From an uncultured Actinomycetes bacterium (GTDB lineage Bacteria; Actinomycetota; Thermoleophilia; Gaiellales; JAICJC01): DNA of 64,000 nt. The stretch is from the NCBI GenBank assembly GCA_963755675.1, contig CAVWLK010000062.1, positions 256,445 through 320,444 of the forward strand, read 5' to 3'. How positions within the stretch are numbered: the stretch's first letter is position 1; each line of letters opens with the position of its first letter. This document shows, piece after piece, positions 7,434 to 61,193 of the stretch. The position numbers were made by a program, and so were the translations under genes. The notes beneath the pieces are model-generated. The model was given only the letters and a program-made list of their open reading frames with translations. It made no database searches and was not told the DNA's origin.

Positions 7434-7544
7434 TACCTGGGTGTGACCCGCCGCGGCTCGTGGAGCGTCAGACCCCGTTTTGCGCGCGCAAGCCTTACAG
7501 ATTCCTCACTAAAACCGTCCGCTCTGGGAGCCGATGTATGCGAC

Positions 7545-8045
7545 GTGAGAATTCGCACACTGATCGCCTCCCTGATGCTGGCAGCGGTGCTGCTGACGGC
7601 GACCGCCGGCCCCGCCTCGGCGACGGTCAACTCCACCTACCGCTGGCGGCTGTTCCTGGCCATCAATGAGGTACGCGCCAATCACGGTCTGGCGCCGGTG
7701 CACCTTGCCTCCGGCCTGCGCAACGCCGCCCAGGCCCACTCGAACGACATGGTGGCGCGCAACTACTTCGCCCACACCAGCCCCACCGGCTCGACGCTCT
7801 GCTACCGCATCATGCACTCCACGTTCGACACCTACGGAGCGTGGTGGGCGGGCGAGAACCTGGCCTGGGGCACGGGCACGATCGGCTCGCCGCGCAACGT
7901 GATCCGGATGTGGCTGGCCAGCCCCGAGCACCGGGCGATCCTGCTCTCCTCGCGCTATACCTACGTCGGCATCGGTCGCGCGGTCGGCCCGTTCCAGGGC
8001 TTCGAAAGCGCGGCCGTGTGGACGGCCGACTTCGGCCACAGGTAA
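7545..8045 (+). CDS. CAP (SCP/PR-1-like) domain secreted protein
   Basis: GTG start followed by signal peptide IRTLIASLMLAAVLLTATAGPASA. Contains NEVRANHGL, YFAHTSP, GENLAWG and WLASPEHRAIL. Confidence 0.8.
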   Translation: MRIRTLIASLMLAAVLLTATAGPASATVNSTYRWRLFLAINEVRANHGLAPVHLASGLRNAAQAHSNDMVARNYFAHTSPTGSTLCYRIMHSTFDTYGAWWAGENLAWGTGTIGSPRNVIRMWLASPEHRAILLSSRYTYVGIGRAVGPFQGFESAAVWTADFGHR

Positions 8046-19001: not shown

Positions 19002-20465
19002 CTAGCGCGGCGTCGCGTCCCGGAATGCCAGCCACGCCCGCTCGACGTGCTGCCAGCCGCTGGCGGCGTTGCCGATCGCGATCCTGGCCGCGAAGCGGCC
19101 GCCGACCTTCGTGTGCGAGACGAACGCGACGCCGCTCGCGTTGACCTGCTCGACGATGTCTGCGTTCAGCCGCTCGAGCTGGGCCTCGTCATCGACTCCG
19201 GCGGGATGGGCCCGAAAGCACACCGTCGACAGTGGCACGGGCGCCATCAGTTCCCAGCCCGGCTCGGCCTCGATCAGCGCGGCCAGCCGCTGCGCCAAGT
19301 CGATATGGCCGGCGACCAGCTCGGCCAGGCCGTCACGGCCGTAGGCGCGGATTACGAGCCAGAGCTTCAGCGCCCGGAACCGGCGTCCCAGCGAGACGCC
19401 GTAGTCCATGTAGTTGACGACCTCGGACTCGCTCGACGTGAGGTAGAACGGCACCACCGAGAAGGCCGCCCGCAGGACGTCGGGACGCGAGGTGTAGAGC
19501 AGGCTGCAATCCACCGGAGTGACCATCCATTTATGTGGATTGAAGACGAGCGAGTCGGCTCGCTCGCATCCTGCGAGCAGGTGGCGGTGGCTCTCGAGCA
19601 GCCCGGCGGCGCCGCCGTAAGCCGCATCGATGTGCAGCCAGAGGCCGTTGCGGGCGCAGATCTCCGCCACCGCTTCAACCGGATCGACGCTGGTTGTGGA
19701 TGTGGTGCCCACCGAGGCAACGACCGCGATCGGCCGCACTCCTTCCGCGAGGTCGCGGTCGATCGCCTCGGACAGAAGGTCGGCCCGCATCCGGTAGGCG
19801 TCGTCGGTCGCGATCTTCGTCACGCCGTCCTGGCCGAAGCCGAGCACGATGCACGCCTTCTCGACCGAGCTGTGCGCCTCCTCGGATGTGTACACGCGCA
19901 GCCGGGGCAGGTCGCGGCCGGCCATCCCCTGCCGCCGGATGTCGAGCCCGGCAGCCTCGCGCGCGGCGGCCAGGGCGCAGAGCGTCGAGGCCGAGGCGGA
20001 GTCGGTGATCTGGCCGAACCAGGCCGCGGGCAGGCCAAGCATCTCGAGCACCCATGACAGCGTGCGCTGCTCGAGCTCGGTTGCTGCCGGCGACGTCCTC
20101 CACAGCATCGCGTTCACGTTCAGGGCGGCGGAGATCAGCTCGCCGACGATGCCGGGGCCGGACCCCGTGATGCCGAAGTAGGCGAAGAACGCGGGATGGT
20201 TCCAGTGCGTAATGCCGGGCATGATCAGCGCGTCGATGTCGGCGAGAATCTGCGACAACGGCTCGCCCGCGGCGGGAGCTTCCAGCGGCAGCCGAGCGGC
20301 GATCTCGCCTGGCTCCACCTGCGCCAGCACGGGCCGGTCGCCGACCGACTCGAGGTAGTCCGCCACCCACCGCGAAGCCTCGTCGAGCGCCGCCCGAAGC
20401 TCCGCCGGGGTCGGCCCCGGGCTGGTGGCTGACGGTGGACTGCTCACCCGCCCAGTATCGCCCAT
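19002..20465 (-). CDS. group II PLP-dependent amino-acid decarboxylase (aromatic-L-amino-acid decarboxylase family)
   Basis: Contains THWNHPAFFAYF, HIDAAYGGAAG and NPHKW (PLP lysine). Starts 4 nt after the upstream stop. Confidence 0.9.
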   Translation of the reverse strand: MGDTGRVSSPPSATSPGPTPAELRAALDEASRWVADYLESVGDRPVLAQVEPGEIAARLPLEAPAAGEPLSQILADIDALIMPGITHWNHPAFFAYFGITGSGPGIVGELISAALNVNAMLWRTSPAATELEQRTLSWVLEMLGLPAAWFGQITDSASASTLCALAAAREAAGLDIRRQGMAGRDLPRLRVYTSEEAHSSVEKACIVLGFGQDGVTKIATDDAYRMRADLLSEAIDRDLAEGVRPIAVVASVGTTSTTSVDPVEAVAEICARNGLWLHIDAAYGGAAGLLESHRHLLAGCERADSLVFNPHKWMVTPVDCSLLYTSRPDVLRAAFSVVPFYLTSSESEVVNYMDYGVSLGRRFRALKLWLVIRAYGRDGLAELVAGHIDLAQRLAALIEAEPGWELMAPVPLSTVCFRAHPAGVDDEAQLERLNADIVEQVNASGVAFVSHTKVGGRFAARIAIGNAASGWQHVERAWLAFRDATPR

Positions 20466-20469
20466 GCGG

Positions 20470-21786
20470 CTAGCTTCGGTAGATCCAGGATCCGGCGTTG
20501 GTGTAGATCGTGAAGAAGAAGCGCCAGCCCGTCAGTCCCGTTGTCCACATGAAACTCCCGCCACCCTTCTTGAGCGCGAAGATCTGCGCTTCGCTGTGTG
20601 TGGAGAGATTGAAGCGGTAGAGCTGCATGCCCAGCAGCGTCTGGCGCACGTAGAGCACGATCGTTCCATCCACCGAGGGATTGGAGTAGGCCCAGCGCAC
20701 GGACGAACGCAACCGCGTGCTGACTCTGGTATCGATCCGGTAGAGCACCACGGAGCTGCGCTCCGAGCCGGTTCGGTGGTAGGTGACGCGCGGGTATGAG
20801 ATATCCGGCGCACCCAGGTCAACCGCGTAGGTGGACTGGGCGATCACCTTCTCGGTGTCGGTGGAGAGGTTGTACAGCACGATCTGACGGCCGGCCTTTG
20901 CGCCCCGCCGGTAGACGAGCCAGTTCCCAGAGAGCGCCGGCTGGTTCCCGACCAGCGGCAGCGTCTGCAGCACCGACATCGTGCCGGTGTCGATGATCTC
21001 GAACGCCGGGCCGGTATCCACCACGACGCGGGTGCCGTCCAGGTCGGGGTTGATGCCGGGCAGATCGGTGAGCACGCCGCCGGCCCGCACCACTCCGGTC
21101 AGCGAGCCGTTGGGGTTGACGCGATCAAAGGCCAGCAGGCCTGGCGCGGCGGAGGGGTCGGCGACGGGATCGGTGCCGAGGTCGAGCTGTGTCGCAGCGC
21201 GGGCGACGGCCGCATTCATGCCGAGCACCAGCACGCCGGCGAGCACCAGCAGCGCGACCGCGTTCAGGCGCCGAACTCGCCCCACACCCATGCCCGCCAT
21301 CCGCTCGATCCGCCCGGTCGCCTGCTCGTAGCTGCGCACGCGGCTGGTGGCGGCGATCAGCGCGAGCGCCCGGCCGGCGCCGAAGGCGCCAAGCACCACT
21401 GCACCGTCGCCGGCGCCGAGCAGCGCGACGACCGCCACCGCCACCACCAAGAGCGTCGAGACCGGCAGGTAGGTTGCGAAGCCGAGGCCGAGTCCAGCGC
21501 CGTAGAGCAGCGCGGCCACGGGCTGCGGATACCGTTCGCGCCAGCGTTCCGGCACCTGACGGCGGAGCTGAGGCACGGGCACCCTGATCACCCCGGCCTC
21601 ACCGGCCGCCTCCACCAGCGCGAGCACGGCAACGGTCGCCACCACGGACGGCCCGCCCGACGGGAGGGCGGCGCCCAGCAACAGTCCCAGCAGCGCCGCC
21701 GTCCCGGTGGCGCCGGCGGCGAACAGGGCGAGCGAGATGAGCCAGGTCCGTGTCCCGTGCACGACGGGGACGATGGTCTCGACCAT
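20470..21786 (-). CDS. polytopic membrane domain fused to a TolB/PD40-like beta-propeller
   Basis: The N-terminal ~190 aa carry at least 4 hydrophobic helices. The C-terminal part has repeated blade-like motifs (IVLYNLSTD, VVLYRIDTR, LYRFNLSTH). Confidence 0.75.
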   Translation of the reverse strand: MVETIVPVVHGTRTWLISLALFAAGATGTAALLGLLLGAALPSGGPSVVATVAVLALVEAAGEAGVIRVPVPQLRRQVPERWRERYPQPVAALLYGAGLGLGFATYLPVSTLLVVAVAVVALLGAGDGAVVLGAFGAGRALALIAATSRVRSYEQATGRIERMAGMGVGRVRRLNAVALLVLAGVLVLGMNAAVARAATQLDLGTDPVADPSAAPGLLAFDRVNPNGSLTGVVRAGGVLTDLPGINPDLDGTRVVVDTGPAFEIIDTGTMSVLQTLPLVGNQPALSGNWLVYRRGAKAGRQIVLYNLSTDTEKVIAQSTYAVDLGAPDISYPRVTYHRTGSERSSVVLYRIDTRVSTRLRSSVRWAYSNPSVDGTIVLYVRQTLLGMQLYRFNLSTHSEAQIFALKKGGGSFMWTTGLTGWRFFFTIYTNAGSWIYRS

Positions 21787-21872
21787 CGAGAACCCTCAAG
21801 GCGACCACGCGCCGGAGATTCCGGCGATCAGCGCGCAGGCGGCGAGCACGGCGTCTGGGCTGGCCGACGTCT

Positions 21873-22472
21873 CTAGCACGGGACGCTGGTCTGGTAGTAG
21901 AGGACGCAGAAGACCTTGCGGCCGTTGTAGCAGTAGCCCGTCAGCGCAGCGTCTCCGTTGATTCGGATCTGGGTGTAGGCGCAGCAGTCGACCAGCTTTC
22001 GAATCGTCCCGCCGCAGCAGCGGTACCAGCCACCGTCGATGCGAGTCGCAAGGTCGTAGCGCTCCGGGATCCAGTCCTGGCAGAGCCGGGTGCGCGGCGC
22101 CTTCGGCACCGGCTCGCCGGTCGGGCCGAGCAGGCGGTCGCCGTTCGCGTCGATCGCGTAGCCCTCGGCATCGATCAGCCGGCCCAGGTTGTCCACCCTG
22201 CGACCGTCCTTGGGCCGGAGCGGGAAGCCGTAGCGGTCGACGCGGGGCGGAAAGAACGGGCCGGGACAGGCGTGGGTGGTGTACGTGTGGCCGCAGAAGC
22301 CGTAGTAGGCCTCGGCCGTGTCCGGCGCGACCGCGCCCGCCGCCAGCCGACCGGAGGCGGCAGCCACCGCGACCCCGCCCACCCGGCCGAGGAAACCGCG
22401 CCGGGTATGTCCCGCCGCGAGCCGGCGGGCGAGGCGTTCGGTGAGCCCCTGGCCGGCGCCCTCAGGCCGCAT
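21873..22472 (-). CDS. Tat-exported Cys-rich protein resembling a methylamine/aralkylamine dehydrogenase light chain
   Basis: Tat motif TRRGFLGRVGG and 10 Cys in the mature part. GGWYRCCGG...KLVDCCA resembles the light-chain core (from memory). The start overlaps the upstream gene by 11 nt. Confidence 0.7.
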   Translation of the reverse strand: MRPEGAGQGLTERLARRLAAGHTRRGFLGRVGGVAVAAASGRLAAGAVAPDTAEAYYGFCGHTYTTHACPGPFFPPRVDRYGFPLRPKDGRRVDNLGRLIDAEGYAIDANGDRLLGPTGEPVPKAPRTRLCQDWIPERYDLATRIDGGWYRCCGGTIRKLVDCCAYTQIRINGDAALTGYCYNGRKVFCVLYYQTSVPC

Positions 22473-23337
22473 GCCGGACGGCTCCTTCCCGTTCGCGAGT
22501 GCGGCCGGTGACGACCACGCTTTCGAGCTGCTCCAGCGTGTTGACGGTGCCCTTGGCGCGCACCGCGCCGTCGTCTCCCACGTAGACCGCGTACGGCGTC
22601 CCGGGGACGAGGAACGCTCGGTGGAGCTCGTAGCCCCGGTCGTCGTCCTCCTTGGCGTGCACGACAGAAAGCGAGTGATCGCGGCCGAGCGCACGCAGGC
22701 CCGGCACGATCTGGGCGCACACCGGGCAGCTCGGCGACGTGAACACGACCAGCGATCCGGCTGTATCGGGTGGCGCCTGCTCGCCCAACGGCAGACCCTC
22801 GCCGTCGTGTTCGAAGGCGCTCCCGGGTCCGAGCCGCAGGTGGAGCACGCCGACCTGGCGGTAGAGCGCAAACACGAGCGCGGCCAGCCCGGCGACGATC
22901 AGCCACAGTGCGACGAACGCAGCCAGCCAAAATGTCTCACCCAGGCGTGGCCGCGCGCCGGCGATAGCTGCCAAGGCAACGGCCGCCAGCAGGACGTTTC
23001 GGATCAGGGCGTAGCGAGCCGGCAATCCGGTGCCCGGCGCCAGGCAGCCGCACGACGCCGGCGACGCTCCGACGGCGAGCTCGGCCGCCAGCGCGAGAGA
23101 AAAGGCGGCGAGCAGTCCCACTGCGGCCCAGCCGGCGGCTGCCGGCCCGGCGATCAGCGCGCAGCCGACGGCCAGCTCAGCCAGCGGCACCAGCCACACC
23201 AGCAGGGGCTTGGCCGGTGCCAGCCGGTAGCTGTCGAGCGACTCCCGGAACCGATCGACGCGGAGCAGCTTGCCCGCCCCTGCGATCAGGAACACGCCAC
23301 CGAGCAGCACCGCGAGTGGCAATTCGACCGTCGGCAT
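22462..23337 (-). CDS. MauE-like membrane protein fused to a MauD-like thioredoxin domain
   Basis: The N-terminal MauE/DoxX-type helices include GGVFLIAGAGKLLRVDRFRESLDSYRL. The C-terminal thioredoxin fold contains VVFTSPSCPVC. Confidence 0.8.
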   Translation of the reverse strand: MPTVELPLAVLLGGVFLIAGAGKLLRVDRFRESLDSYRLAPAKPLLVWLVPLAELAVGCALIAGPAAAGWAAVGLLAAFSLALAAELAVGASPASCGCLAPGTGLPARYALIRNVLLAAVALAAIAGARPRLGETFWLAAFVALWLIVAGLAALVFALYRQVGVLHLRLGPGSAFEHDGEGLPLGEQAPPDTAGSLVVFTSPSCPVCAQIVPGLRALGRDHSLSVVHAKEDDDRGYELHRAFLVPGTPYAVYVGDDGAVRAKGTVNTLEQLESVVVTGRTREREGAVRHAA

Positions 23338-23640: not shown

Positions 23641-24945
23641 TCAGCCGAGCGAGCTCTCGACGGCGGCCACCGCCACGTCGAGCATGCCGAGCATCTCGTC
23701 GATCTCGGCGTCGGAGATGATCAGCGGCGGCGCGAGCATCACCGCGTCCATGTGCTCGTTGACGATCGGCGTCGGGCAGGGGTAGATCATCAGCCCCAGC
23801 TCACGCGCGGCGGCGACCACCCGGCCCGAGATCCGGTCGGTTGCAGCGAAGCGCTCACCCGTCGCCGGGTGGCGCAGCTCGATCCCCTGCAGCAGGCCGC
23901 GGCCGCGCAGCCCGTGCATCAGCGGGTGCCGAGATGCCATCTGCTCGAGCTCGACCCGGATTCGCTCGCCCTTGCGATCGGCCGCCTCGACCAGCCCCTC
24001 CTGCTCGATCGTGTCGATCACCGCGCAGCCGACCGCACAGCCCAGCGGGTAGCCCGAGAAGGTGTGCCCGTAGGAGAAGCCGTTCGGCGCCGTCCCCACC
24101 ACATCACGTATGCCGAGGTCGCCACCATCCCCGACAGCGGCACAACCCCACCGCCGATCCCCTTGCCGAAGGTGATCACGTCGGGCACAGCGTCGTGGTG
24201 CTCCACCCCGAACCAGCGGCCGGTACGGCCAAAGCCGGTGATGATCTCATCCGCCACCAGCAGCACCTCATGACGGTCGCAGACCTCGCGCGCCGCCTTC
24301 AGATATCCCGGCGGGAGGTCGACCGCCGCCCCGGACGAGCCGGTCACCGGCTCGACGATGAACGCGGCCACGTGATCGGCGCCGCGGGTGAGGATCGCGG
24401 CCTCGAGCTCGGCCGCTCCCTGCTCGGCGGTCTCGGCGTTCGGCACGGCGGCGTACTTGTGGAGCAGCGACTCGAACGGCGCCCGCCATCGCGACCCCGA
24501 CAACGAGAGCGCGCCCAGCGTGGAGCCGTGATATGACGTGACCCGCGACAGGAACTCGATCTTGGCCGGCTTGCCACCAGCTCCCAGTAGAGCACCGCAA
24601 GGTGCATGGCTGACTCGTTGGCCTCGGATCCCGACGAGTTGAAGAACGACCACTCCAGGTCGCCGGGGGCGTGGCGGGCGATCCGCTCGGCCAGGTCGAG
24701 CATCGGCTCGTTGCGAAACGAGAAGCGGTACGTATAGTCGATCTCCGCCGACTGCCGCTGGAGCGCCTCGATCACGCGCGGATGGCAGTGGCCGAGCAGC
24801 ATCACCATCGCACCACCGCAGGCGTCCAGGTAGCTGCGCCCGTCGTCGGTCGATCCGCATCCCGGGCGCGCACCGCCACCGGCAGCGCCTCGCCGGCGGT
24901 CATCGAGTAGTCGACGCGCACAGCGCCGGTCGGGGATGCCTCCAT
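23641..24945 (-). pseudogene. class III (omega) aminotransferase, three frame breaks as assembled
   Basis: Homology is split across ORFs 24344..24808, 24018..24860 and 23641..24102. Motifs include LDACGGAMVMLLGH, NSSGSEANE, EPVTGSSGA, ADEIITGFGRTG and FGKGIGGG. Confidence 0.85.
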
Positions 24946-24965
24946 GCGGCGATTCTACCCGGCGG

Positions 24966-26584
24966 TCACAGCGACTGGGGCGGCGCCTGGAGCTCGGCCT
25001 GAAGCTCGATCAGCCAGCACCCCTGGGAGAGGCCGGCGAGCGCCTCGCGCAGCGCGGAGCCGGCATCGGCGGTGTCGGCAATTTCGGCGATAGCTGATGC
25101 CGTAAGCCGCCGCCAACTGCTCGAAGTCGGGCGAGCTCAGATCGACGGCGGTGGAGTGGCCGTAGGCTGACAGTTGGTAGTTCTTGAGCACGCCGTAGCA
25201 GCGATCGTTGACCAGCAACGTGACGATGCAATCCATGCTGCTGGGCCGTCACCAGTTCGTGACCACCCATCAGGAAGCCCCCATCGCCAACCAGCACCAC
25301 CGTAGGTACCGGGGTTCGCGGCGACCGTTCCCAGGCCGGTCGGGATCCCCGAGCCGAGCGCCCCGACATCGGATAGGCAAACCCACCCGGCCGCTTGGCG
25401 TCCAGGTAGAGCACGCCCCAATACCCTGAGAATCGTCATGTCGGACACGACAATCGCCCCATCCGGGAAGCGCCTGGTCGAGAGCACGCAAAAGCTCCGT
25501 TCCTGATCGTGAATCCCTGCGCCGCCACCTCGGACGCCCGCGCCGCGAGCGCCGCCCGGGCACCAGCGGTGCCGTCGCGGGCGCCCCGTCGGGCTGCAAC
25601 GCCACGACGGCGCTCACAGAACAGCCCCACGTCAGAGACGATGCCCTCCACAATCGGATAGTTCGCGCCCAGCCGCGCCGCGTCGATATCGACCTGCACC
25701 AGCGCCTCCGGGAACGGCACCGTCCAATGACAGGTGTACTCCTCGGCCAGCCGCGTCCCCAGCGCAAGCAGACGTCGGCGTTCGCCACCAGGGCCTTCAC
25801 CGCCTGCTCCTCGCACGACGATCCCGCGTGCAGCGGGTGTCCCGACGGCACCACACCCTTGCCGTTGTAGCTGGTGACCACCGGGGCGTCCAGCGCCTCG
25901 GCCAGCCTCGTCGGACCTGCTCAGCCGCCAGCCTCCCGCCACCCCGACGAAGATCATCGGCGCGCGGGCGCCGCGCAGCAGCTCCGCCACCCGCGCCACC
26001 GCTGCCGGATCCGGAGCAGGCAGCGACACCGGCGTCGCCCGTACCCGCACGCTTTCCACCGGCGCGGCCAAGACGTCGATATGCCGCCTCGATCATCGCG
26101 GGCCAGGACGCACCGCGATCGCGGTCAGCGCCTCATCCACCGCCGCGCCGAGCGCCTCGAGGCGTCCGCGGACGGGAGTGGTAGCGCGTGACCGCGGCAA
26201 AGGCCGAAGACTGACCGGACGTCTCGTGCATCCAGCCTCGCTCCCCGGGTCGCTCGGAATCTGGGTGGTGACGTGCAGCACCCGCAACGAGGACGCATCC
26301 GCCTCGCCCATGCCTGCGAATGCGTTGAACGCTCCCGGACCGTGCAGGTGACACAAACGCCAACCCGGCCCGAGGTCGGGCATACCCGGGCCGCGAAGGC
26401 CGCAGCCTGCTCGTGACGCACCACCACGAGCGGATCGACGAGTCGCTGAGCGCATCCCACAGCCCGAGAGCATGCTGCCCCGGAATCCCGAATACGATGT
26501 CGACACCGTGGGCCTCAACGCCGAGACCAGCGCGCCGGCGCCCGTCGCCACAATCTTCTCCTGCGCGATGCTCATGCCGGTCAC
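24966..26584 (-). pseudogene. thiamine-diphosphate enzyme (acetolactate synthase large subunit-like), at least 6 frame breaks as assembled
   Basis: Fragments occur in all three minus frames. They include VVVRHEQAAAFAA, GPGAFNAFAGMGEA, MIFVGVAGG, VLVGDGGFLMGGHELVTA and LLVNDRCYGVLKNYQ. Confidence 0.8.
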
Positions 26585-26585
26585 G

Positions 26586-27124
26586 CTACCAGAGCGCGAC
26601 AGGGCCGGCCCCCGCTACGCTGCCCTGGAGGATCAGCGCGACCAGGTTGTTCAGGTCAGTGGCCGACAGGCTGCTGAACGTGGTCGGCATGATGCCGCCG
26701 CTGAACCCGTGTGCGATCACCTTCTCGGGGTCGACGATCGACTCCTTGACGAAGTCGGGCAGCGGCGTGCTGCCGGCGTCGCCTGCGAGCGCCGTGTCGA
26801 GATTAGGGCCGACGGTTCCGGACGCGCCCGCCGCAGCCAGGGTGTGGACGAGCCGCACCCATTGCCCCATACCGCCTTGCCGGCCACGGCGTCGCCACTA
26901 GCACCGCCGCCCGTCGAACCGCCGGTCGAACCGCCGGTGCTGCCGCTCGGCGTCGAGGTGCTGGGCGCCGAGGTCGCCGACGGCGAGTAGGTCGAGAGCG
27001 GCAACGAGCCGAGCCCCTCGCTCGAGGCACCACTGGTGTCGGTGCCCGAGATGGCGATCACGACGACCATCACAACGATGCCGGCGATGGTTCCGACGAG
27101 GGCTGCAGCGAGTACCTTGATCAT
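26586..27124 (-). pseudogene. membrane-anchored class I cytochrome c, frame break inside the CxxCH motif
   Basis: TM anchor, then an S/T/G-rich linker, then GKAVWGNGCGS. After a frame shift the sequence continues HTLAAAGASGTVGPNLD...GGIMP. The stop abuts the start of the ThDP-enzyme gene. Confidence 0.7.
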
Positions 27125-27240
27125 CGCGCGGGCAACTTTACCAGCTTGACCCGGACGCGTAGCGGCAACCCTGACCGGTAGCCGGGATACCCCAAGAAGG
27201 GGATGTGCGGAGCGGCGTCGAACGACGACCTGTGACCCGT

Positions 27241-27423
27241 ATGCTCGATCGACGAGACATCCAGACACTGATGTACTGCGTGCGGCTGACTGAGATCGGT
27301 GGCCAGTGGCAGTCCGGCTATCCCGTGCGAACGCCGCACGAGCTGGAGTGCAAGCTGGCCGAGTTGCTGCGTGAGGTCGAGCGGGCCGAGCAGGCTCAGC
27401 TGCCCTCCCGCACGGCCGCCTGA
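27241..27423 (+). CDS. possible small hypothetical protein (60 aa)
   Basis: ORF in a 300-bp gap with moderately coding-like codon usage. No Shine-Dalgarno. Confidence 0.3.
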   Translation: MLDRRDIQTLMYCVRLTEIGGQWQSGYPVRTPHELECKLAELLREVERAEQAQLPSRTAA

Positions 27424-39886: not shown

Positions 39887-41311
39887 ATGCGCCGCTCGCT
39901 GTTCGTGCTCATCGCCCTGCTGACCGCGGCGCTGGCGGTGTCACCCGCTGTCCCGGCGTCGGCGGCGTCCGGCGAGCCACATCTGCGGCTGTTCGCGGCG
40001 TCTGACTCGATCGTCCTCAACAAGTACGGCACGGAACCGGTGCGGCTCGACGTAGGCGCCTACCTGTCCGCCACCGGTGCGGACTTCGAGCTCCTGGCCA
40101 CCCGCAGCTACGGCCGGACGATCGAGGTCAGCCAGGTCGTCGGGCACTCCCGGCGAGCGCTGCCGGACGGCGTCGCCGATGGGTGGAACGGCCTGTCCGG
40201 GTTTCTCCAGTTCACGGTGCTCAACTCGTCGGGAGGCCTTGTCGCCAAGCGCCTCGTCACGTTCTGCCCCGATCAGTGGAACCGGCAGCGGGTGAGCGAC
40301 AACGGCCCGCTGACACCCCGGTTCCCCACGTTCTGCGCCTCGAATCCGTTCTCGCTTGGCATGGTCTGGGGCATCGACCACGGCTGGGCGGACAGTCTGG
40401 GCGACAGCGCGCCCGACCTGCGGCTGGCCCCCGGCAAGTACCAGGTCGCGGTGCGGATCCCCGCGGCGTACGCCGACATGTTCGGCATCGCACCGGCCGA
40501 CGCGGTCACGCGGGTCGCCGTGACCGTCCGCAACTCCACCGGCGGTGGCTGTCCGCCGTTCTGCGCGGCGCACAAGACGGCCACCGACGACGGTGCGCAG
40601 CCGACATCGGTGCCCACTCTTACCAACCCCGCCCCCGACACGGTGCCCGACCTGGCGGCGGTGCCGGCATGGAGCATCGGCATCGAGCACGTGAACAGCC
40701 GTGACTTCGTGGACTTCGCCGCCACCGTCTGGGACGCAGGACCGGCGCCGATGGTGGTCGAGGGATTCCGGCGCAGCGACAGCAACGTGATGGACGCCTA
40801 CGAGTACTTCTTCCGGGACGGTGTCGCGGTTGGCCGTGCCCCGGCCGGCACGATGGTCTACGACGCACGCCCCGGCCACCAGCACTGGCACTTCGAGCAG
40901 TTCGCGCGCTACTCACTGCTCGCCTCCGACCACACCAGCATCGTGCGCAGCCGGAAGGAGGCGTTCTGCCTCGCACCCACGGATGCGCTCGACCTCACCG
41001 TGCCAAACGCCGAGTGGAACCCGTACTCGATCGGGCTGACCGGCGCCTGCGGCGATGCGGGCTCGATCTGGGTGCGAGAGACGCTCCCGGTCGGCTGGGG
41101 CGACACCTACTTTCAGTCCTTGCCGGGCCAATCGTTCGACATCACGACCGTGGCCAACGGCACCTACTTCATCGAGGTGCGAGCCAACCCGCTCGGGCTG
41201 CTGAAGGAGGCGAACACGTCCAACAACGTGCGACTGCGCGAGATCGTGCTGGGAGGAACCCCCGGACACCGAACGATCGACGTGCCGGCATGGCGGGGTA
41301 TCGACGCCTAG
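39887..41311 (+). CDS. secreted lysyl-oxidase-like (LOX family) copper amine oxidase homologue
   Basis: Signal peptide present. HQHWH at 40877-40891 matches the LOX HQHYH motif. RKEAFCL matches HKASFCL, and GDTYFQ...QSFDIT...GTYFIEVRANP...NTSNNV parallels the LOX catalytic domain. Confidence 0.8.
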   Translation: MRRSLFVLIALLTAALAVSPAVPASAASGEPHLRLFAASDSIVLNKYGTEPVRLDVGAYLSATGADFELLATRSYGRTIEVSQVVGHSRRALPDGVADGWNGLSGFLQFTVLNSSGGLVAKRLVTFCPDQWNRQRVSDNGPLTPRFPTFCASNPFSLGMVWGIDHGWADSLGDSAPDLRLAPGKYQVAVRIPAAYADMFGIAPADAVTRVAVTVRNSTGGGCPPFCAAHKTATDDGAQPTSVPTLTNPAPDTVPDLAAVPAWSIGIEHVNSRDFVDFAATVWDAGPAPMVVEGFRRSDSNVMDAYEYFFRDGVAVGRAPAGTMVYDARPGHQHWHFEQFARYSLLASDHTSIVRSRKEAFCLAPTDALDLTVPNAEWNPYSIGLTGACGDAGSIWVRETLPVGWGDTYFQSLPGQSFDITTVANGTYFIEVRANPLGLLKEANTSNNVRLREIVLGGTPGHRTIDVPAWRGIDA

Positions 41312-56485: not shown

Positions 56486-56956
56486 ATGCAGAGGGCCGTA
56501 ACGATCTCCGTGAATGGGGTTTCGCACACGACCGGCGTCGAGCCGCGGACGCTGCTGGTGCATTTCCTGCGCGAGCAGCTGAACCTGACCGGCACGCACG
56601 TGGGGTGTGACACCTCGAACTGTGGGGCCTGCACCGTCTGGCTTGACGGTGAGGCGATCAAGTCGTGCACGGTGCTGGCCGTCCAAGCCGACGGCGGGGA
56701 CGTGACCACCATCGAGGGCATCAGCCGGACCGGCGACATGCACCCAATGCAGCGCGCGTTTCACGAGCAGCACGGCCTCCAGTGCGGCTACTGCACGCCG
56801 GGCATGGTGATGGCGGCGATCAAGCTGCTGGAGGCAAATCCGAATCCGAGCGACGACGAGATCCGCCATGGGCTGGAAGGCAACCTCTGTCGCTGCACCG
56901 GGTACCAGAACATCGTGGCGGCGATACGGACGGCGTCGCAGGGGGTGCCGGCATGA
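56486..56956 (+). CDS. (2Fe-2S)-binding small subunit of a CODH/xanthine dehydrogenase-family enzyme (CoxS-like)
   Basis: Contains [12 protein letters not shown] and CGYCTPGMV...CRCTGY. AGGAGG Shine-Dalgarno upstream. Confidence 0.92.
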
Positions 56957-59298
56957 GCGTCGCGACCGACACACGCAAAGGCATCGGCGTCTCGGTGCTG
57001 CGCAAGGAGGACGCTGAGTTCCTCACGGGGCAGGGTCGCTACGTCGACGACATCAAGCTGCCCGGGATGCTGCACATGTCGATCGTGCGCAGCCCCTACG
57101 CGCATGCCCGCATCAGCTCGATCGACGTCGCGGCCGCCCGGCAGATGCCCGGCGTGACCGCGGTCCTGACCGGAGCTGACATCGAGTTCGGGGCCGGCGT
57201 ACCGTGCGCATCGAACCCGACCGGAAAGACGCGCCAGCCGGCGCGGCCGCAGATCGCGATCGACCGCGTTCGGCATGCCGGCGAGCCGGTGGCTGTGGTG
57301 GTCGCCGCTGACCGCTACGCGGCCCGCGATGCCGCCGACGCCGTCGTCGTCTCGTACGAACCGCTGCCGGCAGCGATCGGGCTGGACGCGGCGATGGCCG
57401 CCGATGCGCCAAGGGTGCACGAGGAGTTCCCGGACAACACGTGCCTGGTGATCGAGAACGTCACGGACGGGGTGGACAAGGCGTTCGCCGACGCGGACGT
57501 CGTGGTCAAGCAGTCGATCCGAAACCAGCGTCTGATCCCATGTGCGATCGAGACGAGGGGCGTGGTCGCCCACTGGCTCGGCTCGAACGACGAGCTGACC
57601 GTCCACACGTCGACCCAGATCCCACACTTCGTGCGCACGTTCCTCGCCATCTGCTGCGGCGTCAGCGAGGCCAAGGTGCGGGTGGTGGCGCCCGACGTCG
57701 GCGGCGGCTTCGGCTCGAAGCTGAACTGCTATGCCGAGGAGTTCATCACCGCCGCCGTCTCGCGCGACCTGGGCGTCCCGATCAAGTGGATCGAGGATCG
57801 CTCGGAGGCGATGACGGCCACCACCCACGGCCGCGCGCAGGACGCCCACATGGAGCTGGCGGCCACCAAGGACGGTCGCGTACTCGGCCTGCGCGCACAC
57901 TACGTGCAGGACTGCGGCAGCTACCTGCAGCTGCTGACTCCGACCATCGCCCACCTCACGCTGTTCATGTCGATCGGCCCGTACGACATCCAGGCCGTCG
58001 ACATCAAGGTCACCGAGGTGTTCACCAACACCACGCCGACCGACGCCTACCGCGGGGCGGGCCGGCCCGAGGCAACGCACGCCATCGAGCGGATGATGGA
58101 CATCCTGGCGCTCGAGCTAGGGATGAGCCGCACCGAGGTTCGGCGCAAGAACTTCATTCGCGAGTTCCCGTACAGCTCACCGACCGGGCTCTCCTACGAC
58201 TCGGGCGACTACGAGAAGACGCTCGACAAGCTGCTCGAGCTGTCGGATGACAAGCCCGCCTTCGAGCGCCGCCGCCAGGAGGCGGCCGCGCGCGGCAAGC
58301 TGCTCGGCCGCGGGCTCTCGACCTACGTCGAGATCTGCGGTCTGGCACCGTCGGCAGTAACCCATGCCGTCGGACTGACGCCCGGCGGCTGGGAGACCTC
58401 GACGGTGCGGGTGCACCCGACCGGCAAGGTGACGGTGATCACCGGCACCTCGCCGCACGGTCAGGGGCACGCCACGTCGTGGTCGCAGATCATCGAGTCG
58501 CAGCTCGGGATCCCGTTCGACGATGTCGAGGTGATCCACGGCGACACCGCCTTCGCACCCTACGGGCTGGGCACCTACGGAAGCCGCTCCCTGGCAGTGG
58601 GCGGAACGGCGGTGTTCCGCGCGGCGGGCAAGGTGCGTGACAAGGCGCGCCAGGTGGCGGCCCACATGCTGGAGGCCTCGCCCGACGACATCGAGTTCGA
58701 GGACGGCGAGTTCCGCGTCAAGGGAAGCCCCGACAAGAGCATCGCGATCGGCGCCGTCGCCTTCCGGGCATGGCAGGGCTTTGACCTGCCGGAGGGGGTC
58801 GACCCGGGACTGGACGAGACGGTGTTCCACGACCCGCCCAACTTCACGTTCCCGTTCGGCGCCCACGGCTGCGAGGTCGAGGTCGATCGTGACACCGGCA
58901 AGGTCGAAATCACAAGCTACATCGCTGTTGACGACTGCGGCAACGTTGTGAATCCGATGATCGTGGACGGCCAGGTGCACGGAGGCGTGGCGCAGGGAAT
59001 CGGCCAAGCGCTCTATGAGGGAGCCGTCTACGACGAGTCTGGCCAGTTGATGACGAGCACGTTTGTCGACTACCTGGTGCCGTCGGCGGCTGAGATCCCG
59101 ATCGTCGAAACGCACCACACCGTGACGCCCTCACCCGTCAATCCTCTGGGAGCGAAGGGCATCGGCGAGGCGGGGACTATCGCCGCCAGCGCAGCGGTGG
59201 TCGGTGCTGTCTGCGATGCCGTCGGCGCCCGTGACCTGGACATGCCGCTTCAGCCCGAGAGGGTCTGGCGCGCGATCGACCGAGGAGGTGCATCGTGA
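56953..59298 (+). CDS. molybdopterin-binding large subunit, form II CoxL-like
   Basis: 782 aa with an ATGA junction to the small subunit. The active-site loop reads AYRGAGR (form II signature), not AYxCSFR. Confidence 0.92.
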
Positions 59299-60113
59299 TC
59301 CCGGCCGAGTTCGCATATGAACGGCCAACGAGCGTGGCCGACGCGGTGGGGCTGCTCGGGCGCCACGGCGACGGCGCCAAGCTGCTGGCCGGCGGGCACT
59401 CGCTGATCCCGCTGATGAAGCTGCGGCTGGCCGCGCCGGACGCCTTGATCGACCTGTCGGGCATCCCCGGCCTGGACGGCATCCGGGAGGACGGCGACCA
59501 CATCGCGGTGGGAGCGCTGACGACGCACCGCGCCGTGGCCGAGTCCGACCTGATCGCCCGGGAGTGCCCGGTGCTCGCCGAGACGGCAGCGGGCGTCGGC
59601 GACATGCAGGTGCGTAACCGGGGAACGATCGGTGGATCGATCGCTCACGCCGATCCGCACGCCGACCTGCCGGCCGTGCTGGTCGCACTGGGCGGTGAGG
59701 TGGTGGCCGAAGGACCGAACGGGCGGCGGACGATCGCCGCAGACGAGCTCTTCCTCGACTACCTGACGACCTCCATCTCGGCCGACGAGATCCTGACCGA
59801 GGTGCGGGTGCCAAAGGTTCGCCAGGCGGCGTACGTCAAGTTCAACCGCCGCATGCAGGACTGGGCCGTGGTCGGCGTTGCCGCCGCGATCGCCGGCTCG
59901 GAGGCAAGGATCGCGATCACCGGGGTGGCGTCGCGACCGACCCGGGCGACGGCAGCCGAGCAGGCGTGGAACGGCTCGAATACGGTGCAGGCGGCGTTGC
60001 TCGCCGGCAACGGGCTGACCCCGCCCTCGGACACCGCGGCATCTGGTGAATACCGCGTACACCTCGCAAACGTGCTCACCCAGAGAGCGCTCGAGGAGGC
60101 CGCGGGGCGCTGA
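59295..60113 (+). CDS. FAD-binding medium subunit (CoxM-like)
   Basis: Contains LLAGGHSLIPLMKLR and NRGTIGGS. GTGA junction with the large subunit. Confidence 0.9.
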   Translation: MIPAEFAYERPTSVADAVGLLGRHGDGAKLLAGGHSLIPLMKLRLAAPDALIDLSGIPGLDGIREDGDHIAVGALTTHRAVAESDLIARECPVLAETAAGVGDMQVRNRGTIGGSIAHADPHADLPAVLVALGGEVVAEGPNGRRTIAADELFLDYLTTSISADEILTEVRVPKVRQAAYVKFNRRMQDWAVVGVAAAIAGSEARIAITGVASRPTRATAAEQAWNGSNTVQAALLAGNGLTPPSDTAASGEYRVHLANVLTQRALEEAAGR

Positions 60114-60121
60114 GCGGACGA

Positions 60122-60170
60122 GTGGTGGGCGGCCCGTGTGGCCGCCCACCACGGCGTTCTGGTTTTCGCC
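60122..60170 (+). terminator. intrinsic terminator after the CoxM-like gene
   Basis: Perfect 13-bp stem GTGGTGGGCGGCC / GGCCGCCCACCAC with a 5-nt loop, followed by GTTCTGGTTTTCG. Confidence 0.65.
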
Positions 60171-60191
60171 GCCGGGAGGTAAGCTTCCGGC

Positions 60192-61193
60192 ATGAGAGAC
60201 GTACTTGACGATGCCCGCCGACTGGTCGACTCGGGCGACCGGGTGGCCGTGGCGATGGTGGTCGACAGCAAGCGCTCGGCGCCGCGGCCGCTTGGATCGC
60301 GCCTGCTGGTGACCGAGAGCGGCGAGATGCGCGGATCGGTGTCTGGCGGCTGCGTCGAGAGCGACGTCGTGCTGCGAGCCCAGGAGGTGCTGGCAAGCGG
60401 CGAGCCGCGCCTGGTCTCGTACGGCATCACGGATGACGACGCCTTCGATGTCGGCCTTCCGTGCGGCGGCGAGATCGAGATTTTCATCCAGGTGCTCGAC
60501 CCCGACGAGGTCTCGAGGATCGAGACAGCCGTGCGCGATCACGAGCGCCTGTCGGTGACCACCACGCTGAGCGGCCCGGACGCAGGCAGCAAGGTCTACG
60601 GCGAGGGCGAGCCCCACTCCACCGCCCGACGCGCGGCGCCGGACGCCTTTGTCGAGCATTTCGCCCCGGCGCCGGTGATGCTGATTTTCGGCGCCGTCGA
60701 CACGGCTCAGGCGCTGTGCCGGATGGCCCGGCAGGTGGGATTCCGCACCGTGGTATCCGATGCCCGCACCAAGTTCGCAACCCCGGAGCGGCTTCCCGAT
60801 GCCGACGATATCGTGGTCGGCTGGCCGGCCTTGACGTATGACCGCTACGCGCCGGACGAGGCGACGTACGTGGTCGTGCTGACGCACGACGCTCGCTTCG
60901 ACGAGCCCGCGCTGGGACCGGCGCTGCGCAGTAGCGCGCCCTACATCGGCGCGCTCGGCAGCCGCCGGGCGCAGGAAAAGCGCCGGACTCGGCTGCTGAA
61001 CGCTGGGTACAGCGAATCCGAGATCGACCGCATCTCCGGGCCGCTGGGCCTCGACATCGGAGCCGTCACCCCGGCCGAGACCGCGGTCTCGATTCTGGCC
61101 GAGGTGCTGGCCGTCCGCAGCCACCGTGACGGTGGCCGGCTCGCCGGCTCTGGTGGCCGCATCCACCCGGAGACTGTCACCAGCCCACGGTGA
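60192..61193 (+). CDS. XdhC/CoxI family molybdenum-cofactor insertion accessory protein
   Basis: Contains RSAPRPLGSRLLV, GSVSGGCVE and GLPCGG, followed by the Rossmann-like domain FGAVD. Confidence 0.88.
   Translation: MRDVLDDARRLVDSGDRVAVAMVVDSKRSAPRPLGSRLLVTESGEMRGSVSGGCVESDVVLRAQEVLASGEPRLVSYGITDDDAFDVGLPCGGEIEIFIQVLDPDEVSRIETAVRDHERLSVTTTLSGPDAGSKVYGEGEPHSTARRAAPDAFVEHFAPAPVMLIFGAVDTAQALCRMARQVGFRTVVSDARTKFATPERLPDADDIVVGWPALTYDRYAPDEATYVVVLTHDARFDEPALGPALRSSAPYIGALGSRRAQEKRRTRLLNAGYSESEIDRISGPLGLDIGAVTPAETAVSILAEVLAVRSHRDGGRLAGSGGRIHPETVTSPR

Follow-up and report, generated by a model that had tools for sequence, protein, structure and literature searches.

A translationally coupled cassette of MauE, MauD and MauF homologues with a candidate selenocysteine codon in Thermoleophilia

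We analysed a stretch of 64,000 nucleotides, in the following called the window, from contig CAVWLK010000062.1 of an uncultured actinobacterium of the order Gaiellales (~69% G+C). The subject is a group of four genes on the minus strand which the original prediction had described as a compact module similar to methylamine dehydrogenase (MADH), with a MauE/MauD fusion, a light-chain-like protein, a membrane-anchored propeller and a pyridoxal phosphate (PLP)-dependent decarboxylase. The coordinates of the open reading frames (ORFs) show four co-directional and tightly packed genes, and both of the junctions pointed out there are present: the TGA stop of gene 1 (22462) and the ATG of gene 2 (22472) overlap by 11 nt (ATGCGGCCTGA), and 4 nt separate gene 3 (20470) from gene 4 (20465). 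The genes and the features within gene 3 are as follows.

22462-23337, minus strand: gene 1, 291 aa, MauE-MauD fusion
21873-22472, minus strand: gene 2, 199 aa, start ATG 22472, Tat-exported Cys-rich protein
20470-21879, minus strand: gene 3 as redefined here, 469 aa, probable start GTG 21879, MauF-like membrane domain plus six-bladed TolB-like propeller
20470-21786, minus strand: gene 3 in the database version, 438 aa, start ATG 21786, judged to be a truncation artefact
21796-21798, minus strand: in-frame TGA of gene 3, candidate selenocysteine codon U28 in the motif AWSP-U-GFS
21752-21770, minus strand: candidate bacterial selenocysteine insertion sequence (SECIS) hairpin, RNAalifold consensus of TGA-type genes
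19002-20465, minus strand: gene 4, 487 aa, group II PLP decarboxylase

For comparison we used 87 related loci (labels up to L088), taken from at least 588 species-representative genomes that carry gene 2; the 80 loci kept come nearly all from Thermoleophilia or from unclassified actinobacterial metagenome-assembled genomes (MAGs). The closest relatives of the window are Gaiellales MAGs, with 87-94% identity of the gene 2 protein. The cluster mauF-B-E-D-A-amicyanin-J-G of Methylobacterium sp. DM1 pLVM1 served as the canonical mau reference.

The N-terminal part of gene 1 (aa 7-126, 22960-23319) matches the Pfam model MauE (PF07291) with 73.5 bits against a cut-off of 27 (E 2.5e-20) and contains a CGC motif (aa 96-98, 23044-23052) in the loop between transmembrane (TM) helices 3 and 4. 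After a fifth TM helix follows a MauD-like thioredoxin domain (aa 136-280, 22498-22932) with the motif CPVC (aa 204-207, 22717-22728). In tblastn, MauD from Methylobacterium aligned with gene 1 along 181 aa, its anchor helix included, and 32% of the residues are identical (E 1e-21); TIGR02661, the MauD model, matched the tail with 66.4 bits and E 2e-18, below its equivalog cut-off of 188.6. Judged from these matches gene 1 is a MauE-MauD fusion, as had been proposed from its membrane helices and its CPVC-bearing thioredoxin tail. Both the CXC and the CXXC motif are kept in 80 of the 85 related loci counted. Because five hydrophobic helices can be read from the sequence, the CGC and the CPVC motif are both predicted to lie outside the cell. 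MauE was recently described as a DsbB-like disulfide-forming enzyme which complements dsbB in E. coli, with CXC as the experimentally defined active site and with about 8% of the MauE proteins fused to thioredoxin (Gonzalez et al., bioRxiv 10.64898/2026.03.05.709764). Like these MauE-thioredoxin fusions and the VKOR-thioredoxin fusions, gene 1 combines a four-helix CXC core with an extra TM helix and a CXXC thioredoxin, and the predicted flow from quinone via CXC and CXXC to the substrate would be the same. In contrast to them, the fusion is locked here in a cassette with a specific client and a MauF-like partner.

Gene 3 combines a helical membrane domain with a propeller. Beyond what had been noticed before, hhalign connected the membrane domain with MauF from Methylobacterium (98.9% probability, E 2.6e-17, 162 columns). 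Both proteins have the motif RVPxPQxRxQVP in common, and TWSPCGYSS of MauF aligns with WSP-TGA-G of gene 3; about 75 N-terminal residues of MauF are absent from gene 3. Neither Pfam nor NCBIfam contains a model for MauF. According to the profile alignment the membrane domain is homologous to MauF. The AlphaFold2 (AF2) model of gene 3 has a predicted local distance difference test value (pLDDT) of 86 and consists of the helical membrane domain followed by a beta-rich part at residues 200-438 in the numbering of the 438-aa version (pLDDT ~95). In the numbering of the 469-aa version the propeller comprises approximately aa 231-469 (20473-21189). Using Foldseek, the beta-rich domain could be superimposed on TolB (E 1e-8, ~225 columns, 3.6 Å root mean square deviation); the top matches were TolB and other six-bladed propellers, and the MADH heavy chain was not among the top 50. 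Homology of this propeller to MauB was considered as well and rejected (hhalign 1%). The description of gene 3 as a membrane domain with TolB-like blades, distinct from MauB, was thus correct, but not the boundaries given for it, as the coding sequence probably extends upstream through a TGA codon.

The tblastn alignment with MauF runs 16 codons upstream of the annotated ATG of gene 3, and the extended frame reads VLETSASPDAVLAACALIAGISGAWSP-TGA-GFSMVETIVPVVHG. The apparent gap of 86 nt between genes 2 and 3 looks coding and continues in frame through the TGA at 21796-21798 up to GTG 21879, which overlaps the stop of gene 2 by 7 nt (GTGCTAG); the start of gene 3 is thus probably 93 nt further upstream, at GTG 21879 instead of ATG 21786. 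This GTG, 27 codons upstream of the TGA, is kept in the clade of the window. At the position of the TGA the loci fall into two types: TGA is present in 57 loci (56 related loci and the window) and TGC or TGT in 25, with the flanks kept in one frame. The TGA type was found in MAGs labelled Gaiellales or Gaiellaceae and the Cys type in those labelled Solirubrobacterales or Conexibacter. Because the conserved GTG overlaps the stop of gene 2, gene 3 most likely spans 20470-21879 with a candidate selenocysteine U28, which would be located in the first TM helix (WSP-U/C-G). A second Cys occurs 13 residues from the Sec/Cys position (loci L002-L085), on a side that differs by clade: it lies upstream in the clade of the window (AAC15ALIAG), where the downstream site is His (PVVHG), and the majority of the remaining TGA-type clades have it on the downstream side (PAVCG). 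In Cys-type proteins this Cys is missing on both sides.

As a rule, the stem-loop of a bacterial SECIS element lies 16-37 nt past the UGA and has a G in its apical loop. The consensus calculated with RNAalifold from 50 TGA-type genes places a hairpin 26-43 nt beyond the UGA; its loop starts 32 nt after the codon. In the window the stem has 5 bp and the loop reads CGUGC; within the family the stem reaches up to 7 bp with the loop CGUGY. In TGA-type genes 89% of the hairpin cells are paired, compared with 83% in shuffled alignments (0 of 500 reach the observed value), and four pairs show double changes. The matching columns of 24 Cys-type genes are paired to only 39%, the same as after shuffling. 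Scanning of the UGA region against Rfam gave no match, and Rfam has no corresponding family.

These data have to be weighed against the simpler assumption that the TGA is a true stop. Gene 3 would then start at ATG 21786 and encode 438 aa without a redox residue, and the stretch upstream would be a mini-ORF or the decaying remnant of a Cys-bearing N-terminus. Gene callers indeed let all database homologues start at MVET, every TGA-type gene has an ATG or GTG 3 codons past the TGA, the hairpin does not stand out by its thermodynamic stability and no selenocysteine machinery was detected in the ~1 Mb searched. TGA is also a normal stop in this genome: it ends 9 of the 26 confidently called genes of the window, so a global reassignment of the codon did not take place. 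Against a true stop speaks that the frame is kept across the TGA in 57 species-level genomes and that the 16 codons upstream of it vary mainly in the third position (entropy 0.51/0.26/1.05 for the three codon positions), including a switch of a serine codon from TCN to AGC. Furthermore, the M of SMVET is kept equally well as an internal residue in Cys-type proteins, the TGA aligns exactly with a Cys that is invariant in MauF and in the Cys-type homologues, and the hairpin is specific to TGA-type genes. We therefore consider a true stop distinctly unlikely; the TGA of gene 3 is probably a selenocysteine codon, as far as can be judged from codon conservation and RNA folding. As gene callers truncate the frame at the TGA, the gene is systematically mis-annotated. 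The stop codons of the 26 genes mentioned are TAG in 14, TGA in 9 and TAA in 3 cases; in an actinobacterial genome of ~69% G+C a dominance of TGA would be expected.

A catalogue of 119 families of prokaryotic selenoproteins contains none with a WSPUG motif, a MauF-like domain or a fusion to a propeller (Zhang et al. 2026). Gene 3 resembles catalogued selenoproteins such as the rhodanese/DsbD-fusion-like TsoB and the transporters YeeE/YedE in the Sec/Cys pair at a putative redox site, the SECIS-like hairpin shortly after the UGA and the mis-annotated truncated ORF, but differs from them in its domains and in that the selenocysteine would sit inside a TM helix. No NCBIfam model matches the extended selenoprotein candidate, and literature searches revealed neither a MauF selenoprotein nor selenocysteine use in Conexibacter or Thermoleophilia. 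Gene 3 probably represents a selenoprotein family that is absent from the 2026 catalogue.

Gene 2 has 1786 homologues in a database clustered at 90%; all of them are annotated as hypothetical and lack a Pfam domain. The features listed in the original prediction, the twin-arginine translocation (Tat) motif TRRGFL (aa 23-28), 10 Cys and the motifs GGWYRCCGG, KLVDCCA and KVFC, are all present. In the family alignment the 10 Cys (positions 60, 69, 131, 152, 153, 163, 164, 181, 189 and 199) are invariant, as are H62 and W149, the latter flanked by Cys pairs. The leader is probably cleaved after AEA (aa 55), which would leave a mature part of ~145 aa. A comparison with an alignment of 27 MauA precursors revealed a MauA-type leader at aa 7-41 (22350-22454): in hhalign residues 7-41 of both families align with 96.6% probability (E 4.9e-10), and in tblastn the MauA leader is 43% identical to gene 2 over 30 aa. 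The shared region can be written as ExLxRRxA-x4-[ST]RRxFLGRxG. The sole NCBIfam match of gene 2, TIGR02659 (MADH small subunit), is confined to leader residues (aa 10-39, E 1e-3) and scores 19 bits against a cut-off of 196.85. On the evidence of these alignments the leader of gene 2 is homologous to the leader of MauA.

For the mature part the situation is different. The original prediction had compared GGWYRCC..DCC..KVFC with the core of the light chains of MADH and aralkylamine dehydrogenase (AADH), which carries the cofactor tryptophan tryptophylquinone (TTQ). Gene 2 gave no match to Pfam PF02975 at E<=1, and phmmer and a family-profile search of the PDB sequences with gene 2 retrieved no MADH. 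After removal of the leaders, hhalign of mature gene 2 with mature light chains yielded 0.9% probability, and the C-terminal and N-terminal sub-domains alone yielded 0.65% and 0.56%. The three hhalign runs on the mature part chose three different registers, none of which is the proposed W149/W57 register. The Trp pair of TTQ (W57 and W108 in mature numbering) has no counterpart, as W149 alone is invariant and W134 varies; the site at which the second Trp had been expected is F188. In the AF2 model of gene 2 the pLDDT averages 66.7 and reaches 75-95 over most of the mature part. A Foldseek search of the PDB with this model gave a best E of 0.63 and no MADH or AADH chain among the matches listed, which were noise with E > 0.6, mostly NTF2-like folds. 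The candidate assignment of the mature part as a MADH/AADH light chain was therefore rejected, because Pfam, the PDB-sequence profile, hhalign and Foldseek all remained without a match. The resemblance to the light-chain quinone core is, in these sequence comparisons, no better than chance, and gene 2 is not a demonstrable TTQ light chain.

A profile search of the whole library with gene 2 found 300 relatives, many of which are fragments or gene-call fusions. Four of them, P0123, P0125, P0149 and P0182 (430-490 aa), match gene 2 in their C-terminal part only; from their lengths and the 11-nt overlap we suspect that they are gene-call fusions of gene 1 with gene 2. Two giant matches, P0190 and P0255, are repeat proteins of eukaryotic type (DUF3659, plectin), explained by a simple GxxVDxxG hairpin repeat at residues 75-122 of gene 2, and were discarded as uninformative.

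In essentially all of the 87 loci, and across two orders, gene 2 is directly preceded by gene 1 and directly followed by gene 3 on the same strand; among the 64 full-length loci gene 3 has this position in 63. Genes 1-3 alone travel together in relatives outside Gaiellales. In the window neither MauB, MauG, amicyanin nor MauJ was found by tblastn and by Pfam searches of most ORFs, in agreement with the absence of the first three claimed before, and none was found in the 87 loci. Enzymes of the MauG, LodB or QhpG type were not detected within 6-10 kb of any of these loci, and no radical-SAM enzyme was near.

The cassette has much in common with the mau clusters of Methylobacterium sp. DM1 pLVM1 and Paracoccus: homologues of MauE, MauD and MauF, the order E-D-small Tat protein, the MauA leader and the pairing of a small Cys-rich subunit with a beta-propeller protein. 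The designation as a Mau-like module is to this extent justified, with the order E-D-"A" corresponding to mauEDA, but not with respect to light-chain homology and a generally conserved operon link to the decarboxylase. The differences are equally clear. MauE and MauD are fused, and MauF lacks its first ~75 residues and is fused to a propeller which is six-bladed and TolB-like and not homologous to the seven-bladed MauB. The small protein has 10 rather than 12 Cys, one invariant Trp and a mature part that is unrelated by every test applied. MauG, amicyanin, MauJ, MauL, MauM and MauN are missing, the host is an actinobacterium and not a proteobacterium, and the Cys of the F-type protein is replaced by TGA.

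We favour with moderate confidence the interpretation that this unannotated three-gene, translationally coupled cassette, which occurs throughout the class Thermoleophilia, serves specifically to fold and mature a single client protein outside the cytoplasm, with components that are homologues of MauE, MauD and MauF and with a putative Sec or a Cys residue in the product of the third gene. Judging from its motifs the 199-aa precursor would be exported via Tat, and the leader ExLxRRxA-x4-[ST]RRxFLGRxG may act as a handle common to the clients of MauE, MauD and MauF. The CGC motif of the MauE domain would take oxidising power from quinone and hand a disulfide to the CPVC motif of MauD, if the activity published for DsbB-like MauE applies here. 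The MauD-like domain, placed outside the cell by the fifth TM helix, could then oxidise the 10 Cys of the client. For gene 3 we propose that Sec (in Gaiellales including the window) or Cys (in Solirubrobacterales and Conexibacter) takes part in thiol/selenol exchange, which might serve isomerisation, reduction or a transient selenosulfide tether. The propeller, predicted to face outward, may dock the folded client and would be a functional analogue, not a homologue, of MauB.

A dedicated role has to be distinguished from the possibility that gene 1 is a general disulfide system of the DsbB/DsbA type whose neighbours are unrelated passengers, without a dedicated client. Such a role would agree with the complementation of dsbB in E. 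coli and with the proposal that MauE is a generalist with a distribution largely independent of mau clusters (bioRxiv 10.64898/2026.03.05.709764). It does not explain the strict adjacency, the fixed order and the overlapping junctions with genes 2 and 3 across two orders, nor that the leader of the client is specifically MauA-like and that the partner of gene 1 is a homologue of MauF. As the cassette is fixed and has a specific client and a MauF-like partner, we prefer a dedicated role and regard an unspecific one as very improbable.

Several observations weigh against a dedicated maturation system with a redox-active gene 3 product. We know of no function assigned to MauF even in the canonical system. 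The negative Foldseek result for gene 2 is not decisive, because the AF2 model is only moderate (pLDDT 66.7). Gene 3 resembles the CcdA/DsbD superfamily in a membrane domain of about six helices and in the segment AGV..SPC of CcdA TM1, which aligns residue for residue with AGVSGAWSP(U/C), and some homologues of gene 3 are labelled CcdA by JGI; but the profile match to CcdA (5vkv) is too weak to be significant (E 0.24), the other Cys of the CcdA active site (TPC in TM4) has no counterpart, neither Pfam DsbD nor DsbD_2 matches, and most members have a candidate Sec at the redox position. As a single sequence the hairpin of the window does not exceed shuffled sequences in stability (z 0.15), and one event at clade level could account for its main compensatory change. 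ARAGORN and tblastn with SelA, SelB and SelD from E. coli detected neither tRNA-Sec nor selA, selB or selD in the window and the related loci; this negative result is uninformative, because only ~1 Mb could be searched.

For about 30 years MauE, MauD and MauF have, to our knowledge, been described solely as helpers that methylamine dehydrogenase requires on genetic evidence. The Mau-type maturation system proposed here is new in that it has a different client, fused components and a host from a different phylum. It separates the MauE/D/F machinery from TTQ chemistry, since the machinery recurs without MauB, MauG and a light chain in hundreds of species of soil actinobacteria. The different client has kept only the MauA leader, which suggests that the leader is the recognition element, and the Sec/Cys pair at the CcdA-like SPC position would mark MauF as a redox-active membrane protein. 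The roles of MauE, MauD and MauF thereby become testable outside TTQ biogenesis. Cys-type cassettes occur in Conexibacter and Solirubrobacter MAGs, and both genera have cultured members; if cultured strains carry the cassette, the system may be open to experiment.

The fourth gene of the window does not belong to the conserved cassette. Gene 4 matches Pfam Pyridoxal_deC (E 2e-94, 316.9 bits) and contains NPHKW with the PLP lysine at aa 309-313, which confirms the proposed group II decarboxylase. Its best relatives in the PDB are DOPA decarboxylase (7xin, 2e-123) and tyrosine decarboxylase (1.5e-108), followed by tryptophan decarboxylases, so that on sequence comparison gene 4 is a PLP enzyme of the aromatic-L-amino-acid decarboxylase (AADC) type. 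It is next to the cassette in L003-L033 only and absent from L001, L002, L031 and L034-L088; the expected conservation of a four-gene order in relatives was not found, and the link to the decarboxylase is confined to a subclade of Gaiellales. In the same loci the flanks comprise a class-III aminotransferase, a thiamine pyrophosphate (TPP)-dependent enzyme and a c-type cytochrome; the order of the housekeeping genes (IleRS, Ala racemase) is kept to the same degree in this subclade. More distant loci have unrelated neighbours: when the ORFs around the cassette were clustered to see whether another gene or a redox partner is shared outside Gaiellales, only parts of ABC transporters, a subtilase and PntB emerged, each in a minority of loci. 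The corresponding features upstream of gene 1 are the following.

23641-27268, minus strand: Gaiellales-specific upstream context with aminotransferase, TPP enzyme and cytochrome, located by tblastn with the intact proteins of L005
~23647-24862, minus strand: class-III aminotransferase, tblastn, in several frames
~25090-26551, minus strand: TPP-dependent enzyme, tblastn, in several frames
~26586-27268, minus strand: membrane-anchored c-type cytochrome, tblastn, in several frames

An amine-oxidising function is a rival reading. Gene 2 and the propeller could form a new periplasmic quinoprotein amine dehydrogenase with a cofactor on W149, either a mono-Trp quinone or a Cys-Trp cross-link, which oxidises an aromatic amine made by the decarboxylase, passes electrons to the nearby cytochrome c and is matured by the MauE/D/F-like proteins. 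Each role of the canonical mauF-B-E-D-A has a counterpart here, the leader of gene 2 is of the MauA type, the invariant W149 has Cys pairs on either side, and the Gaiellales flanks offer the AADC-like decarboxylase together with the aminotransferase, the TPP enzyme and the cytochrome. With MADH and AADH the system shares a small subunit that is rich in Cys, exported via Tat and provided with a conserved Trp; in one clade an aromatic-amino-acid decarboxylase is encoded next door. However, the mature domain has no similarity in sequence, profile or fold to the light chains of MADH or AADH, a second invariant Trp is missing, and no MauG-, LodB-, QhpG-type or radical-SAM enzyme is near any of the 87 loci. 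The decarboxylase, the cytochrome and the aminotransferase are confined to one order, in which housekeeping genes are kept in place just as well. Moreover, the decarboxylase has no signal peptide, so the amine would be made in the cytoplasm. The specific quinoprotein hypothesis put forward earlier fails, because a light-chain match is lacking and the four-gene order is not kept; a protein-derived quinone and an amine substrate, suggested by analogy and by the lineage-specific neighbours, remain speculative. Overall we consider a quinoprotein amine dehydrogenase unlikely, and the decarboxylase, the aminotransferase, the TPP enzyme and the cytochrome c are lineage-specific neighbours.

A more general variant would be an extracytoplasmic redox enzyme of two subunits, in which a disulfide-knotted small subunit with a protein-derived cofactor on W149 (or on H62/Cys) docks on the membrane-tethered propeller and is matured by the MauE/D oxidase and a membrane-embedded, Sec-containing MauF. 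We judge this to be quite improbable. If it were true, MauF would be the missing catalyst of cofactor or disulfide editing, and the finding would also bear on the so far unexplained first, MauG-independent hydroxylation in the biogenesis of TTQ.

The aminotransferase, TPP enzyme and cytochrome genes are split over two or three frames in the window and intact in L003-L007, where they match Pfam Aminotran_3, TPP_enzyme_N/M/C and Cytochrom_C. Other genes of the window also look shortened: the Ala racemase consists of the N domain only, PGM is without most of domain I and a GlmS-like ORF has only the SIS domains. Random indel errors of the assembly seem a more likely cause than pseudogenes. The sole non-actinobacterial MAG in the set, L067 (DATBHU010000509.1, labelled Polyangia bacterium), carries a Cys-type cassette with 56% identity, which is probably a binning error or possibly the result of horizontal transfer.

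Elsewhere in the window, a Haem_bd protein (PF14376; 2681-3274, plus strand) and a CAP/cysteine-rich secretory protein (7443-8045, plus strand) are encoded, neither of them linked to the cassette. About 17 kb from the cassette, and unlinked in other loci, an ORF of 474 aa (39887-41311, plus strand) matches Pfam Lysyl_oxidase with E 8e-10; enzymes of this type contain copper and a quinone formed from the protein itself, lysine tyrosylquinone (LTQ). A molybdoenzyme cluster of the xanthine-dehydrogenase/CO-dehydrogenase type (56665-61193, plus strand) comprises a MoCoBD large subunit, a FAD_binding_5 subunit and the maturation factor XdhC.

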